Origin: Escherichia coli
Lineage (GTDB): Bacteria; Pseudomonadota; Gammaproteobacteria; Enterobacterales; Enterobacteriaceae
Length of the DNA: 64,000 nt
Direction: 5' to 3' (one strand)
NCBI RefSeq assembly: GCF_046105845.1
Contig: NZ_CP151004.1
The notes beneath the pieces were generated by a model. It was given only the letters and a program-made list of their open reading frames with translations. It was not told where the DNA came from and did not search any database. The position numbers and the translations under genes were made by a program. Shown here piece after piece: positions 42,553 through 47,552 of this stretch (the first letter of the stretch is position 1; each line of letters begins with the position of its first letter).

Positions 42553-42571
42553 TGTGTCTCCCTCCATCAAT

Positions 42572-42599
42572 GGCAGTCACCATTAGTATGGTCACTGCC
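42572..42599. promoter_or_regulatory. Imperfect 12-bp inverted repeat between yjfC and aidB
   Basis: GGCAGTCACCAT TAGT ATGGTCACTGCC, with one mismatch. It lies 20 bp upstream of the aidB start and 37 bp downstream of the yjfC stop. Confidence 0.4.
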
Positions 42600-42635
42600 A
42601 TGGATTCATGACAGAAAGAGATTGCTAAAACATTC

Positions 42636-43799
42636 TTATCCAGCAATGTAATGCGGAACGAAACGTGAGGTGTCTTTGGTGATCAGCGTGTTATCTTCAC
42701 GGATCCCCATTCCGCACGCTTCATCATCGACAATCCAGCTACCGATGAGTGTGTAGCTATCGCCAAATCGCGGCAGAGGTTGAAACGCCTGGTAGATCAT
42801 CGGTTCATCGGCGTAATCACCATCAGCGTGGTCAACGACGTTATTCTGACCGTCGAAAATGGTGACATTGCCGCCTTCGCGCGAGTAGATCGGTTTACGC
42901 ACATAGCTTTCGCCAGCGGCAATCTGCGGTTTTTCGCCCTCAAACCAGGATGCAAGAAGGTTAGGATGACCAGGGAAGAAGCGCCAAAGCAGTGGCATTA
43001 GCCCTTTATTACTCAAGATACTTTTCCATAACGGCTCCACCCATTGCTCGCGACGCTTGCGCAGCAGCGGACCGTTATCGTCACGCATCATCCACTCTAG
43101 CGGATACAGCTTAAATGCACGCTGGATGACATTATCATCAAGATCGGTCAGTACACCGCCGACGCCCAAACCGAGATCTTCAATGTAGATAAACCGCGAC
43201 TCCTGCCCTGCCTGCTGGGCGCAGTCCTGCAAATACAGCACGGTAGTCCTGTCTTCATCGGTGTCCTGACAGCAGCAAAAATAAAACGGTTCCCGACTGT
43301 AAAGCTCGCTAAAGCGTGAAATCAGGCGTTCCTGAATAGCATTGTACTGATCGGCATCACGCGGAATAATGCCGCTGCGCCGGGCATCCTCCAGCCACAG
43401 CCACTGGAAATAAGCCGACTCGTACAATGAAGTTGGCGTATCGGCGTTGTACTCCAGTAGCTTCACCGGCGCATTGCCACACCAGGCAAAATCCATCCGG
43501 CCATACAGCGAAGGATCTCGTGCGCGCCAGCTTTCGGCGATCACATCCCAGTACAATGGCGGGATCGCCAGTTGCGTCAGGATCTCTTCGTCTTTAACCG
43601 CGCGATCCACCACCTCAAGGCACATCTGATGCAGTTCCGCAGTCGGTTTTTCGATCTGCTCTTCAATCTGACGCAGGGTAAAGCGGTAAGCCCGACTCTC
43701 ATCCCAATAGATTTCATTGTCGATGATATGAAAGTCGAAACCGTTGTCAGCGGCGATCTGGTCCAGATCCCACCGTACAGGAACGTTGTGTCTCAGCAT
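42636..43799 (-). CDS. yjfC: Glutathionylspermidine-synthase-like ATP-grasp protein of unknown substrate
   Basis: Start set at MLRHNVPVR (387 aa). Recognised as YjfC, the paralogue of YgiC. Confidence 0.9.
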   Translation of the reverse strand: MLRHNVPVRWDLDQIAADNGFDFHIIDNEIYWDESRAYRFTLRQIEEQIEKPTAELHQMCLEVVDRAVKDEEILTQLAIPPLYWDVIAESWRARDPSLYGRMDFAWCGNAPVKLLEYNADTPTSLYESAYFQWLWLEDARRSGIIPRDADQYNAIQERLISRFSELYSREPFYFCCCQDTDEDRTTVLYLQDCAQQAGQESRFIYIEDLGLGVGGVLTDLDDNVIQRAFKLYPLEWMMRDDNGPLLRKRREQWVEPLWKSILSNKGLMPLLWRFFPGHPNLLASWFEGEKPQIAAGESYVRKPIYSREGGNVTIFDGQNNVVDHADGDYADEPMIYQAFQPLPRFGDSYTLIGSWIVDDEACGMGIREDNTLITKDTSRFVPHYIAG

Positions 43800-43801
43800 G
43801 A

Positions 43802-44440
43802 TTAGCCTCCCCAATGCCCACGGGCGCTGGAAGAACGACCATAGCCGCCGCGAGAAACGGTTGACGCTTTTTTGGTGGTAAAGCCGCCCGAAGAGTAAGA
43901 CTCTTTTTTGCCAGAACCGGAGCGCCAGGAGTAATCACCAGAAGTGTTGCGCCAGACAGGGCGCGAAGCAAAAGAGGAACCGCCGCTGTTATAAACAAAC
44001 TGCTCATCACGATCTTTACGTATAACCCGGCTTAACAAAAATCCAGAAACGACCGGGATCCAACTCTGTTCAACGTTGTCGTAGTAACAATTTTCATACT
44101 TAGACTGACAATTCTGCTGAGTCATATTCTTCGGAACATCGGCATAAAACGCCGCTTTGGCGTTGTTCCAGCCATGAGCACAGATATCTGAATTATTTCC
44201 GTCATCAATACAATCCTGCACAGTCGAGTAAAACGTTCCGTCGCCGTCGTTATCGACATCGCCACTATCGCCACAACCTTTCAATACGAAAAAAGCGGCA
44301 CCGCCCATTAGCGCCAACGTTAAGTATTTTTGTGCGTAACGATTGCGACGCGGTTCAAAAGGATTATTCGGTCTACCAATGCGACTGATCGCTCCGTGAC
44401 CAATTTTACTGTTATTTCTTGATTTGCGTTTTCTGGCCAT
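43802..44440 (-). CDS. yjfM: DUF1190-family protein YjfM
   Basis: 212-aa ORF. Basic N-terminus, one hydrophobic segment (YLTLALMGGAAFFVL), a Cys-containing middle region and a Gly/Ser/Arg-rich tail. Recognised as YjfM. Confidence 0.88.
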   Translation of the reverse strand: MARKRKSRNNSKIGHGAISRIGRPNNPFEPRRNRYAQKYLTLALMGGAAFFVLKGCGDSGDVDNDGDGTFYSTVQDCIDDGNNSDICAHGWNNAKAAFYADVPKNMTQQNCQSKYENCYYDNVEQSWIPVVSGFLLSRVIRKDRDEQFVYNSGGSSFASRPVWRNTSGDYSWRSGSGKKESYSSGGFTTKKASTVSRGGYGRSSSARGHWGG

Positions 44441-44449
44441 GATCGTCCA

Positions 44450-44848
44450 TTACCATGTCATACAAGCTGCGTTAAAAATACCGCCAGCCAGTGCGGCGGT
44501 TCCCATAAACATTCCTGCTGCGGTATTGTGATTAATAATTTTTTCGCTTAATGCGGGCATATAAAGTCTGACGCCAGCAAAAACGAGTAACTGAATCACC
44601 AGTGCGATCCCGCCCCAGGCGAAATAGTCTGGAATACTCACCGCATTGATTGCCGCACTGGATAACGGGATCACGTAACCCAACAATGTACCGCTGAACG
44701 CCAGTGACGCCGCGGTATTATTGTTTTTGATTAACTGCCATTCGTTGTGCGGTGTAATTTTAGAATAGATAAACAGAAAAATAATCACCATAGCCACGCC
44801 AATAAAAAAATAGGCACTAAAGGCAAGAAGAGAATCCAGTATATGCAT
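44450..44848 (-). CDS. yjfL: DUF350-family small inner-membrane protein
   Basis: Start set at MHILDSLLAFSAYFF (132 aa). Four hydrophobic segments. Confidence 0.88.
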   Translation of the reverse strand: MHILDSLLAFSAYFFIGVAMVIIFLFIYSKITPHNEWQLIKNNNTAASLAFSGTLLGYVIPLSSAAINAVSIPDYFAWGGIALVIQLLVFAGVRLYMPALSEKIINHNTAAGMFMGTAALAGGIFNAACMTW

Positions 44849-44865
44849 TGTAAACGTCCTTGTAA

Positions 44866-45525
44866 TTAACCAATAATATGAAGTGATGTCAGCGGGATAT
44901 CGACACCCAACGCGCGCGAAAATAACCACTCTGGCTCGCCGAGATCGTTAAAAGATTCCTCACCATTTAGCAGCAAATATTCGTAAGTATCTTCGGTTAC
45001 TTGCCGTTGGTAGCCCATGGTAAAATTATGGACCTCCCATTTGGCATGGTTTTGATTTTCTACTTTTTCCAGCATGTAGACGGGTTCGATATTTCCCGGT
45101 TCTTCGCTGTTAAAAAATCGCTGCCAGCGTTTTTCCTGCCAGTTTAAGGTCATTGCCCCCATCGCTTTGGCATTGATCGTCTCGCGCCAGTGACTCTCTT
45201 TACTGATACCGTAGCTCTCTTCATAGACAAAGAGCTTGATATCATCAATGTCATCAATATTTTCGCCGCCGGTGGTATTGATTTGCAGAAATTCATCGCC
45301 CGAAGTGTAGTAGCGGAAAATCTGGCTACCGCCGCCCAGATCGATGCGGCTGACGGCGGCTACCGTAAATTCCTCACCCGGCAGCGCAATCAGCAATTCA
45401 TCTTCCAGCAAACGAAACGCTAACGTGTCGAGCGTAAAACCACTATTGAGATGCAGACCCAGCGGACCGCGAGCGATAGCAGGCTTATTATCCTTGCCAA
45501 ACAGACGCTGGAAAAAACCAGACAT
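44866..45525 (-). CDS. yjfK: DUF2491-family protein YjfK
   Basis: 219-aa ORF recognised as YjfK. Confidence 0.88.
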   Translation of the reverse strand: MSGFFQRLFGKDNKPAIARGPLGLHLNSGFTLDTLAFRLLEDELLIALPGEEFTVAAVSRIDLGGGSQIFRYYTSGDEFLQINTTGGENIDDIDDIKLFVYEESYGISKESHWRETINAKAMGAMTLNWQEKRWQRFFNSEEPGNIEPVYMLEKVENQNHAKWEVHNFTMGYQRQVTEDTYEYLLLNGEESFNDLGEPEWLFSRALGVDIPLTSLHIIG

Positions 45526-45545
45526 ATTTTATCCTTAAAATAGTT

Positions 45546-45568
45546 GCCAGCCTTGCAGTGAGGCTGGC
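45546..45568 (-). other. Intercistronic hairpin between yjfJ and yjfK
   Basis: GCCAGCCT (45546-45553) pairs with AGGCTGGC (45561-45568). No clear downstream T-run on the coding (minus) strand. Confidence 0.5.
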
Positions 45569-45575
45569 AAAAAAA

Positions 45576-46274
45576 TTACTCGCCCTGTTGGCGTTGCAGT
45601 CTTGCTAATACATCCTGGGCGCTACTTTTATTGCTACCGCCTATTCCGGCTTCCGCCAGCTTTTCATCAAGATCGCGACCGTCTGCGACTTTTTCCAACT
45701 GTGCAGCAGCATCCAGACGAGCCTGACGTTCGGCCTGACGCGTTTGCAGGCGTTTTAAGGATTCTGCCGCTGTCGAAACGCTGGAAGATGCGCCAACGGT
45801 AGAGGTCGTTACAGCCTGTTGTGCACGCTGCATGGCTTCAGTGGCTTTAACGACTTCCATTTGCTGCTCAAACTGAGCGATACGCTGCGCTGTCGCTGTA
45901 ACTGCTTTTTCCACGCCATCACGGGAGACTTCCAGATTCGACAACACTTGCTCTTCAGCGGTAATGAGATTCTCAAGGCGCGCGATTTCTTCAGCAACTT
46001 CGTTAATCAACGACGGATTAACGTTCTTGCTTAACGCTTCCAGCGCACGAGCTTCCAGACTGGCTTTGCGCTCACGTAAATCTTTCAGCTTATCGTGACT
46101 TAATTTCACCCGCGCCAGCAGATCAACGCGAGATTTTCCGGCTTTATCGAGTTCAGCTTTAGCGTCACGAATATGCTGTTCCAGCATGCGCACGCCCTGG
46201 GTTTCTTCAATGGATTCTTCCGCTTGGGAGATAAACGATTTCCCCAGCGTAAATAAACTTTTTAAAATTCCCAT
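45576..46274 (-). CDS. yjfJ: PspA/IM30 (Vipp1/ESCRT-III-like) family protein
   Basis: 232-aa coiled-coil-type ORF recognised as YjfJ. Confidence 0.9.
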   Translation of the reverse strand: MGILKSLFTLGKSFISQAEESIEETQGVRMLEQHIRDAKAELDKAGKSRVDLLARVKLSHDKLKDLRERKASLEARALEALSKNVNPSLINEVAEEIARLENLITAEEQVLSNLEVSRDGVEKAVTATAQRIAQFEQQMEVVKATEAMQRAQQAVTTSTVGASSSVSTAAESLKRLQTRQAERQARLDAAAQLEKVADGRDLDEKLAEAGIGGSNKSSAQDVLARLQRQQGE

Positions 46275-46292
46275 AAATACCCGTCCTTGTAA

Positions 46293-46694
46293 TTAGTGTG
46301 AATATTCTTCTGTAATTTCAGCCAGATCCAATGCGTTATCTACCAGCGAGGTTATCTCAAGCAGGATATCTTCAAGAGAAGATTTAAGCGATAACGCCCC
46401 GAAAACAATGTAATACTCTTCCTGTTGTACGCTGGAGATCCCTACCGATGACAACGGCATCATCTTCTGATTTCTTAATAAGAAGGTATTAAATTCATCT
46501 GGATTGCTGATACTACTCACCGGACAAATAAAGGTTTCGATAATCATTTGGCGGGAAGTAAAAAGAATATTGATTTGCAAATCGCCATAATCATTCATTT
46601 TAATAATTAATGCGTTCTCGCTATTTGTTACATCAATATTTTGTTCAGGTACAGTTTGCAGCGCCGTCGCCAGCGCCAACGGATTCCATGTCAT
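46293..46694 (-). CDS. yjfI: DUF2170-family protein YjfI
   Basis: 133-aa ORF recognised as YjfI, first gene of the yjfIJKLMC string. Confidence 0.88.
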   Translation of the reverse strand: MTWNPLALATALQTVPEQNIDVTNSENALIIKMNDYGDLQINILFTSRQMIIETFICPVSSISNPDEFNTFLLRNQKMMPLSSVGISSVQQEEYYIVFGALSLKSSLEDILLEITSLVDNALDLAEITEEYSH

Positions 46695-46773
46695 ATATTA
46701 TTCCATATAGATTTAGTTTAAATATTAACAAAATGAATATTTGCAGTACGTAATTATCTTACCAGCTAAACAC

Positions 46774-46801
46774 AAAAAAAAACCATCCAAATCTGGATGG
46801 C
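46774..46801 (-). terminator. Rho-independent terminator downstream of rlmB
   Basis: The minus strand reads GCCATCCAGATTTGGATGG followed by TTTTTTTTT, 20 nt after the rlmB stop. Confidence 0.85.
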
Positions 46802-46820
46802 TTTTCATAATTCAGAGGAA

Positions 46821-47552
46821 CTAGCTGCGCTGTCGCACCGCTTCAAATAAGCAAATCCCTGTCGCAACCGAAACGTTCAGGGAAGAAACGCTTCCTGCCA
46901 TTGGGATGCTGATCAACTCGTCGCAATGTTCACGAGTCAGGCGACGCATACCTTCACCTTCCGCGCCCATCACCAGCGCCAGGCGTCCGGTCATTTTGCT
47001 CTGATAGAGTGTATGATCCGCCTCGCCTGCCGTACCGACGATCCAGATATTCTCTTCCTGCAACATACGCATGGTGCGCGCCAGATTAGTCACCCGAATC
47101 AGCGGAACGCTTTCTGCCGCGCCGCAGGCTACTTTTTTCGCCGTGGCGTTGAGCTGTGCGGAGCGATCTTTCGGCACAATCACCGCATGAACACCTGCGG
47201 CGTCCGCGCTACGCAGGCACGCGCCGAGGTTATGCGGATCGGTTACACCGTCGAGGATCAGCAGGAACGGTTGATCGAGCGAAGCGATCAGATCCGGCAG
47301 ATCGTTTTCCTGATACTGACGTCCTGGCTTCACACGGGCAATAATGCCCTGATGCACGGCACCGTCGCTTTTCTCGTCGAGATACTGACGGTTCGCCAAC
47401 TGAATAACCACGCCCTGGGACTCAAGGGCGTGAATCAGCGGTAACAGACGTTTATCTTCACGGCCTTTTAAAATAAAGACTTCCTGAAAACGTTCAGGGG
47501 CGCGCTCCAGCAGGGCCTGCACTGCGTGGATGCCGTAAATCATTTCGCTCAT
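46821..47552 (-). CDS. rlmB: 23S rRNA (guanosine2251-2'-O)-methyltransferase (SpoU/TrmH family)
   Basis: 243-aa ORF recognised as RlmB. Confidence 0.95.

Follow-up and report, generated by a model that had tools for sequence, protein, structure and literature searches.

The yjfIJKLMC cluster of Escherichia coli as a nested PspA and peptide-spermidine ligase module, with the YjfM C-terminus as a candidate ligase substrate

Introduction

Proteins of the PspA/Vipp1 family are the bacterial branch of ESCRT-III membrane repair, and Escherichia coli encodes a second copy, YjfJ, in the six-gene cluster yjfIJKLMC that is the subject of this study. The cluster occupies positions 42,636–46,694 of the window, a 64,000-nucleotide stretch of E. 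coli contig NZ_CP151004.1. It belongs to an operon class already described by Ravi et al. 2024 (mSystems, PMC11237479) as a 'third group', which combines a CesT/Tir–PspA dyad, a GspS-like ATP-grasp ligase, DUF350, a DUF1190 lipoprotein, DUF2491 and a K+ channel, and for which those authors propose PspA-based membrane dynamics tied to polyamines. A sequence-only reading of the same DNA had taken the genes for an undescribed system; with this publication, and with the K-12 locus listed as b4181–b4186, that claim falls. The gene set is the same in both, and the published work names E. coli YjfI as the type of the DUF2170 group, whereas the published architecture has a K+ channel with a cytoplasmic ligand-sensing domain and the window has no channel. 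The description is purely comparative, and contains neither the conservation of the DUF1190 C-terminus nor the nesting of dyad, trio and sextet (PMC11237479). The cluster is real, conserved and already known; what is added here is the nested architecture and a directly testable hypothesis for the substrate of the ligase YjfC.

Parts of the cluster also resemble other described systems. At tolC-ygiB-ygiC of E. coli, a DUF1190 gene is likewise followed by a peptide-spermidine ligase gene, with a gap of 5 nt compared to 2 nt in yjfM-yjfC. YgiB ends in SMGG, a Gly-Gly terminus like that of YjfM, and YgiC is ~50% identical to YjfC, both ligases having been crystallised. However, ygiB-ygiC lacks the PspA, chaperone, DUF2491 and DUF350 partners, its link being to the gene of an outer-membrane channel, and the lipobox of YgiB is canonical (LAGC), in contrast to the VLKGC of YjfM with its 38-residue basic extension. 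The literature links ygiBC to the growth defect that tolC mutants show in minimal medium. In addition, yjfMC reportedly acts in parallel with ygiBC in the growth of tolC mutants, a finding attributed to Dhamdhere and Zgurskaya (2010).

The ATP-grasp synthetase fold of YjfC is shared with GspS and trypanothione synthetase, which carry out ATP-dependent spermidine amidation of a C-terminal Gly carboxylate. YjfC differs from GspS in lacking the amidase domain, and is reported to be inactive on glutathione and to take other peptides. The classical Psp system (pspF/pspABCDE, pspG) has an effector of the same PspA/IM30/Vipp1 family, and a role in inner-membrane stress is proposed; the yjf cluster, by comparison, encodes neither PspB/PspC sensors nor a PspF activator and lacks an obvious sigma-54 promoter, and its partners (a CesT-like chaperone, DUF2491 and DUF350) differ wholly. 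In the bac cluster of Pseudomonas aeruginosa (PA3732–PA3729), the gene for the DUF2170 protein BacA (8Q8O) lies directly upstream of that for a PspA homologue, as yjfI does of yjfJ, but the other downstream genes are different, a ligase, DUF1190 and DUF350 are not reported, and the phenotypes concern biofilm and virulence. Finally, a substrate that stands beside its own ATP-dependent carboxylate–amine ligase is familiar from graspetide precursors and their ATP-grasp ligases, from Pup and PafA, and from S6 and RimK. The step proposed here would have in common with these the linked polypeptide carboxylate, and would differ in its free polyamine nucleophile and in an exported lipoprotein substrate.

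Results and discussion

The yjfI–yjfC locus

The identity of the locus as the E. coli yjfI–yjfC cluster is virtually certain. From the open reading frame (ORF) listing and the sequence, it consists of six minus-strand genes at 42636–46694:

yjfI, 46293..46694, minus strand: 133 aa, DUF2170 (Pfam 1.5e-44), CesT/Tir-like cytoplasmic chaperone fold, without signal peptide
yjfJ, 45576..46274, minus strand: 232 aa, PspA_IM30 (Pfam 5.3e-58), PspA/IM30/Vipp1 (ESCRT-III-like) coiled-coil protein
yjfK, 44866..45525, minus strand: 219 aa, DUF2491 (Pfam 5.6e-71), all-beta, without signal peptide, transmembrane segment or solved structural relative
yjfL, 44450..44848, minus strand: 132 aa, DUF350 (Pfam 1.3e-33), small multi-helix inner-membrane protein
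yjfM, 43802..44440, minus strand: 212 aa, DUF1190 (Pfam 7.1e-18)
yjfC, 42636..43799, minus strand: 387 aa, GSP_synth (Pfam 2.2e-149), stand-alone GspS-type ATP-grasp ligase (peptide-spermidine ligase)

The intergenic gaps, in order from yjfI to yjfC, are 18, 50, 17, 9 and 2 bp, exactly as the sequence-only reading had given them, and its assignments of DUF2170, PspA/IM30, DUF2491, DUF350, DUF1190 and a glutathionylspermidine-synthase-like ATP-grasp enzyme are all upheld by Pfam, the six matches scoring far over the gathering cutoffs. The starts of yjfL and yjfC are ATG codons within longer ORFs that begin with GTG and TTG, respectively, and all gene boundaries and lengths agree with those of b4181–b4186 in the RefSeq annotation of K-12.

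Of 5426 complete E. coli genomes, 5326 or more carry at least 80% of the cluster stretch in one piece, with 95–99% identity across nearly all E. coli genomes, and just 3 of the 5942 places that match the stretch are plasmid-borne. Frameshifted variants of yjfM and yjfK are frequent in E. coli and Shigella assemblies. Beyond E. coli, a genome-collection scan with patterns derived from a YjfK alignment, which were over-specific, provided an Enterobacterales set of 27 loci, and the order rlmB-yjfIJKLMC-aidB was found in every one with enough sequence except that of Salmonella diarizonae. In the latter (Salmonella enterica subsp. diarizonae), aidB follows almost directly after yjfI, and yjfJ–yjfC are deleted. 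A 237-bp contig in a Bacillus sanguinis assembly, with 97% protein identity to E. coli yjfK, is almost certainly contamination of that assembly.

This distribution bears on whether the cluster could be an anti-phage defence system or a mobile island, for which the only argument is that genes without a known function are packed tightly together here. Given the fixed chromosomal site between rlmB and aidB across Enterobacterales, together with the genome and plasmid counts above, we regard this explanation as barely credible. A search with PADLOC likewise led us to reject a defence system, in that it returned two weak coiled-coil matches for YjfJ (E 5e-4 and 2e-3) and none for the other five proteins.

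Nested architecture in distant relatives

Distant relatives were collected by scanning metagenomes for a degenerate DNA pattern that encodes the DUF1190 C-terminus, the pattern having been checked on the window. The scan gave 120 loci, of which 65 were distant, and dereplication left 25 clusters. Protein identity to E. coli in the distant loci is 41–58% for the ligase (YjfC), 25–44% for J and 23–29% for K, and the gene order I-J-K-L-M-C is nonetheless retained in metagenomic loci over this range of 23–58%, an outcome that answers favourably the check for co-conservation across genomes proposed with the sequence-only reading. The ligase gene is directly downstream of the DUF1190 gene in 21/22 dereplicated distant clusters and elsewhere in the locus in the remaining one, while DUF350 is directly upstream of DUF1190 in 20/24, and 11 of the 13 with enough upstream flank contain the whole set I, J and K. 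In every examined locus in which the two genes were detected, the yjfI-type gene lies directly upstream of the yjfJ-type gene. One locus, L045, keeps all six genes in a divergently split arrangement, C-J-I / K-L-M.

A second sample comprised seven DUF1190 proteins from a profile search, picked regardless of the tail. A GSP_synth gene occurs 5–66 nt downstream of DUF1190 in six of these seven. Three picks, all on alphaproteobacteria-like contigs, consist of the dyad alone (Kiloniella, a MarineAlpha4 alphaproteobacterium and a 2.8-Mb contig), a fourth has DUF350 in addition (Pseudoalteromonas), and two are full six-gene clusters; the seventh pick, L154, is described below.

The architecture is nested: a dyad M-C is contained in a trio L-M-C, which is contained in the sextet I-J-K-L-M-C. 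We consider it likely that the six genes are functionally coupled. The earlier view of one six-gene unit is borne out as far as co-conservation goes, but is too simple, since the unit is a nested composite and the E. coli expression module holds just yjfIJKL.

The YjfC ligase

YjfC is essentially identical to PDB entries 7UK6/7UK7 (E 6.7e-273) and scores 498 bits against GSP_synth. It aligns with the synthetase part alone of GspS (residues ~252–444) and of trypanothione synthetase (501–626); no amidase region was found in YjfC, which reaches 163 bits against the NCBIfam bifunctional model compared to a cutoff of 882. Peptide-spermidine ligase activity of YjfC and YgiC in vitro is reported by Pederick et al. 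2023, as relayed in citing papers, and crystal structures of these ligases are available (7UK6/7UK7 and 7UK8/7UKA). The RefSeq product name of YjfC is now peptide-spermidine ligase. Both enzymes are reported to lack glutathionylspermidine synthetase activity. The sequence-only reading had concluded from the latter point that the substrate is unknown; this stands insofar as the physiological peptide is still to be named, but not for the chemistry, given the reported ligase activity (Pederick 2023, as cited by others) and the structures 7UK6/7UK7.

The conserved C-terminus of YjfM

The DUF1190 family was characterised through a HMMER search of 1.84 billion cluster representatives and the resulting alignments. 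Its members consist of a lipoprotein-type signal peptide (Cys 95%), an acidic domain with four cysteines, a conserved hydrophobic P/G motif and a basic tail. The acidic domain has a mean net charge of –6, and the tail, of +7, is rich in Gly, Ser and Arg with the motif SRGGFG and usually ends exactly in WGG. The four domain cysteines are conserved at 98–100%. In YjfM, these elements are positioned as follows:

Four-Cys domain, residues 68–140, 44021..44239, minus strand: C77, C87, C111 and C118; includes the hydrophobic P/G motif
C-terminal motif SRGGYGRSSSARGHWGG, directly ahead of the stop codon, 43805..43855, minus strand: the most conserved part of the family besides the Cys

In the AlphaFold2 (AF2) model, residues ~68–130 have a predicted local distance difference test (pLDDT) score >90, and the tail is disordered. 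The exact end of the protein is strongly retained, with WGG in 39/40 intact enterobacterial YjfM orthologues. Among representatives of 50%-identity clusters with a length of at least 150 aa, 92/114 end in GG and 15/114 in GS, and a second set from the profile search (n = 104) includes 68 that end in GG, 16 in GS, 12 in AG and 5 in ST. Among the cluster proteins, a conserved last residue is a property of DUF1190 alone, the termini of I, J and C being variable. Two further candidates for the ligase substrate were rejected on similar grounds: the terminal Gly of YjfK is not conserved (A/S in some, and T, A or I in distant loci), and YjfL, although it keeps its NAACMT motif, varies in the final position.

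At the other end of the protein, YjfM possesses a lipobox-like VLKGC, in which the Lys at –2 is atypical, and the 38-residue basic extension lies ahead of the hydrophobic segment. A loose lipobox pattern fits 98/114 DUF1190 members, and the lipobox Cys is 95% conserved. Enterobacterial YjfM proteins carry a strongly basic extension of 30–45 residues (44327–44440 in the window), compared to a short MKRS... signal in most DUF1190 members. YjfM may be a signal-anchored protein instead of a processed lipoprotein.

We also considered whether the hydrophobic motif (YjfM 126–140) might cross the membrane as a second helix and bring the tail back to the cytoplasmic side. This was rejected, as the motif is too short and not hydrophobic enough for a membrane span (the best 19-aa hydropathy averages 0.74), and AF2 places beta strands there, inside the folded Cys domain. 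The tail of YjfM is accordingly predicted to lie on the periplasmic side. The Prc/Tsp tail-specific protease recognises free C-termini with small uncharged residues. YgiB is increased 3–4 fold in a mutant without the periplasmic tail-specific protease tsp (PMC13435647), an independent hint that the DUF1190 tail is periplasmic and that it matters.

Proposed mechanism and soluble-substrate alternative

We propose a core layer of YjfL, YjfM and YjfC, and an accessory layer of YjfI, YjfJ and YjfK. By analogy with GspS, YjfC would form an acyl-phosphate on a peptide C-terminal carboxylate, which would then be amidated by a polyamine. Because GspS-type enzymes amidate a C-terminal Gly, and because the ligase gene is almost always next after DUF1190, the C-terminus of YjfM is the simplest substrate candidate; the physiological carboxylate would be the small-residue end (usually Gly-Gly) of this upstream-encoded protein. 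The YjfM precursor would be modified before Sec export, resulting in a polycationic, carboxylate-free tail in the periplasm. Such a tail might bind anionic envelope components and/or evade proteolysis by Prc/Tsp, whose degron would be masked by the amidation. YjfL (DUF350) would serve as the membrane partner of the YjfM–YjfC pair. In the accessory layer, YjfI would hold or deliver YjfJ, YjfJ would assemble on the inner membrane from the cytoplasmic side and stabilise it under stress, and YjfK would act as a cytoplasmic adaptor.

To this reading as a whole, a nested envelope module with the YjfM tail as YjfC substrate and YjfI-J-K as a membrane layer, we assign a probability of roughly 0.4. The assignment of the YjfM tail as the YjfC substrate, judged on its own, is tentative and should be taken as doubtful. 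A broader formulation, in which the DUF1190 lipoproteins YjfM and YgiB are dedicated ligase substrates that receive C-terminal spermidine before export and act jointly with a chaperone-controlled ESCRT-III-like polymer, is speculative and, in our estimation, unlikely. No paper stating that the C-terminus of DUF1190 is a ligase substrate was found in the searchable literature, outside which Pederick 2023 lies. Nor did that literature contain a published physiological mechanism for the cluster, in agreement with the sequence-only reading. Its suggestion of a Psp-independent envelope-stress module containing a ligase is supported by the co-conservation, by the PspA-like YjfJ and by a cluster free of pspB, pspC and pspF, and needs amending in that the module was already described and its ligase chemistry is known.

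Several observations weigh against the proposed role of the YjfM tail. The Gly-Gly end is not universal: in alphaproteobacterial members with a neighbouring ligase gene the last residues are AST or VAG, and one DUF1190 subgroup extends beyond WGG to ...SSS. The tail is predicted to be periplasmic and the ligase is cytoplasmic; YjfC has no export signal and needs ATP, so that YjfM would have to be modified before Sec export. The metagenome sample was picked by the tail motif, and supports adjacency, not tail conservation. In one contig (L154, NODE_10_length_219420), DUF2170-PspA-x-DUF2491 is followed by a 307-aa DUF1190 protein, with no DUF350 and no ligase found within 7 kb. Lastly, the E. coli expression module excludes yjfMC, and the two layers may be separately regulated. 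A second DUF1190-like ORF is present 3 kb downstream in L154.

The conflict in topology is avoided if YjfC joins spermidine to a soluble small peptide or metabolite, as GspS does with glutathione, and its neighbours handle the conjugate or polyamines. YjfL would then be an exporter or channel, and YjfM a lipoprotein for binding or sensing in the periplasm. The PspA layer would answer the ensuing change in membrane charge or ion balance, and the DUF1190 tail would serve otherwise, for example in binding or as a degron. Consistent with this alternative, ligase activity has so far been reported on free peptides alone, DUF350 almost always occurs between the two layers, and related operons contain, in addition to the K+ channel, genes for S-adenosylmethionine (AdoMet) decarboxylase and polyamine oxidase (PMC11237479), a gene content suggestive of polyamine chemistry on small molecules. 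However, a soluble substrate would leave unexplained both the bond between DUF1190 and the ligase, which persists even as a bare dyad without DUF350, and the conservation of the exact DUF1190 C-terminal end, and no candidate small peptide is known. We view it as a possibility to be taken seriously, if a less than likely one.

If modification of the YjfM tail were correct, protein C-terminal polyamination would be a previously unknown post-translational modification, and polyamines, envelope lipoproteins, TolC-related fitness and PspA-type protection would become linked. If the substrate link fails, the cluster is a well-conserved but ordinary 'y-gene' operon. The adjacency of DUF1190 and ligase, together with the conserved C-terminus, turns the question of the ligase substrate into a short list of direct experiments.

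The YjfI, YjfJ and YjfK layer and YjfL

YjfJ scores 196.7 bits against PF04012 (cutoff 33.9), with residues 2–232 covering profile positions 1–220/220. As a single sequence it gave no PDB match, but a profile of 10 YjfJ-type proteins aligns with Vipp1/PspA chains over residues 1–227 (6ZVR and 8QBW; E ~1e-15) and with E. coli PspA (4WHE; E 2.9e-6), the alignment taking in the N-terminal membrane-binding helix. The published structure of YjfJ is a template-based model only (PMC12492005). Judged by sequence, YjfJ is a full-length PspA/Vipp1 relative, and we think it reasonably likely, from this homology, that it provides PspA-type membrane protection.

PspA has an established dual role, and YjfJ might correspondingly be mainly a regulator, as E. 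coli PspA is of PspF, with the cluster working as a transcriptional feedback device; an earlier annotation of YjfJ as a putative transcription factor (PMC12492005) is in line with this. Yet neither a PspF-like bacterial enhancer-binding protein nor any other regulator is encoded in the cluster, and the profile spans the ESCRT-III-like fold from end to end, N-terminal helix included, which makes a primarily regulatory function highly improbable. Pfam gave no match to the PspB, PspC and PspF families among the six products, and the flanking genes are rlmB and aidB.

YjfI matches the crystal structure of P. aeruginosa BacA (8Q8O) over residues 3–128 (E 1.1e-16), and the CesT/Tir fold has been assigned to DUF2170 (PMC11237479, PMC10948618). 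YjfK has been labelled a porin of the outer membrane, and YjfI a lipoprotein of the periplasm (PMC12492005), but the sequences do not support these localisations: neither protein has a signal peptide, and YjfI is homologous to the cytoplasmic chaperone-like protein 8Q8O. YjfL carries a C-terminal motif LNAACMT[PWY], including a Cys (44450–44470 in the window), which is kept in loci where identity elsewhere is 27–49%.

A movable K+ channel gene

In related genomes, a K+ channel gene (355 aa, Ion_trans_2, selectivity filter TLGFGD) is located between yjfJ and yjfK, as in loci L005 (8932–10000) and L007 (8934–10001). The gene occupies this junction in Citrobacter, Buttiauxella, Atlantibacter and Serratia microhaemolytica, and in 19/5426 complete E. 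coli genomes. It is translationally coupled at both ends, through TAATG and through its own stop, which abuts the yjfK start. The window has no K+ channel and carries a 50-bp hairpin spacer (45526–45575) in its place; comparison of the junction with L005 and L007 indicates that the hairpin occupies the channel gene site of related genomes. The position of the channel gene is not fixed, as it lies at the J/K junction in Citrobacter and others but follows C in L088 and precedes L in L139. It is thus a movable seventh gene that has been lost in this lineage. In two marine-type loci (L088 9212–9748 and L071 12337–12870, re-oriented coordinates), a tightly packed ORF of ~178 aa follows the ligase and K+ channel genes. 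It had no Pfam match, and is possibly a further module member.

Transcription signals and expression structure

The cluster is bounded and interrupted by several structured elements:

rlmB intrinsic terminator, 46777..46806, minus strand: 13-bp stem followed by a 9-T run (46782–46774), –19.7 kcal/mol, z –6.05
AT-rich upstream/promoter region of yjfI, 46695..46776, minus strand: GC 0.34–0.39 (46450–46899)
GC-rich hairpin in the yjfJ-yjfK spacer, 45544..45570, minus strand: 10-bp stem, –17.1 kcal/mol, z –3.08
Terminator-like stem within the last 50 nt of yjfL, 44480..44500, minus strand: ACCGCCGC...GGCGGT, then AUUUUUAACG; just ahead of yjfM
Inverted repeat after the yjfC stop and ahead of the aidB start, 42570..42601, minus strand: 14–15 bp, CCATGGCAGTGACCAT-ACTA-ATGGTGACTGCCAT, without T-tail

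The rlmB terminator forms the 5′ boundary of the cluster, and the low-coordinate end of its T-run is exactly 80 nt upstream of the yjfI ATG (46694). The AT-rich upstream region noted in the sequence-only reading is present (GC 0.34–0.39 at 46450–46899); a scan for the sigma-70 consensus gave no site upstream of yjfI and none for yjfM. According to Rychel et al. 2025 (PMC12492005), yjfIJKL form an expression module of their own (iModulon), to which yjfMC do not belong, and are strongly induced in strains evolved for growth at 45 °C. The authors ascribe this induction to the loss of a single nucleotide 80 bp ahead of yjfI, interpreted as a promoter mutation (PMC12492005). The reported deletion is situated where the 9-T run (46774–46782) of the rlmB terminator ends and, from its position in the sequence, read-through from rnr-rlmB may be an alternative to a promoter mutation as the cause of the effect.

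Within the cluster, the hairpin in the yjfJ-yjfK spacer is followed by CUAUUUUAAG, a weak U-tract, and is possibly a partial terminator or an mRNA-stabilising element. The stem at the 3′ end of yjfL is barely more stable than shuffled sequence (z –1.8), and its position fits an E. coli expression module that holds yjfIJKL without yjfMC.

These features raise the question of whether the cluster is simply two independent neighbouring modules with no common mechanism, namely a chaperone-PspA-DUF2491(-DUF350) stress unit and a DUF1190-ligase unit. The restriction of the E. coli iModulon to yjfIJKL and the terminator-like hairpins after yjfJ and within the 3′ end of yjfL are as expected for such a division, as are the mention of a 'yjfIJ operon' in the BacA paper, the existence of the DUF1190-ligase dyad alone in several lineages and beside tolC in E. 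coli, and the divergent arrangement of the two halves in L045. On the other hand, the six-gene order and tight spacing persist where the J and K proteins are just 23–35% identical, I, J and K are present in 11/13 distant clusters with enough flank, the divergent variant L045 still keeps the six genes together, and translational coupling extends across the J/K junction in channel-bearing genomes. Full independence of the two halves is thus rather unlikely, and we favour the nested module.

Downstream of yjfC, the inverted repeat noted in the sequence-only reading is real (42570–42601), though without a T-tail. The 71-nt stretch that contains it folds at –23.7 kcal/mol (z –3.7). The repeat is not called as a terminator; it is located 17 nt ahead of the GTG start of aidB, and is probably a regulatory element of aidB or an mRNA leader structure, as opposed to a terminator of the cluster.

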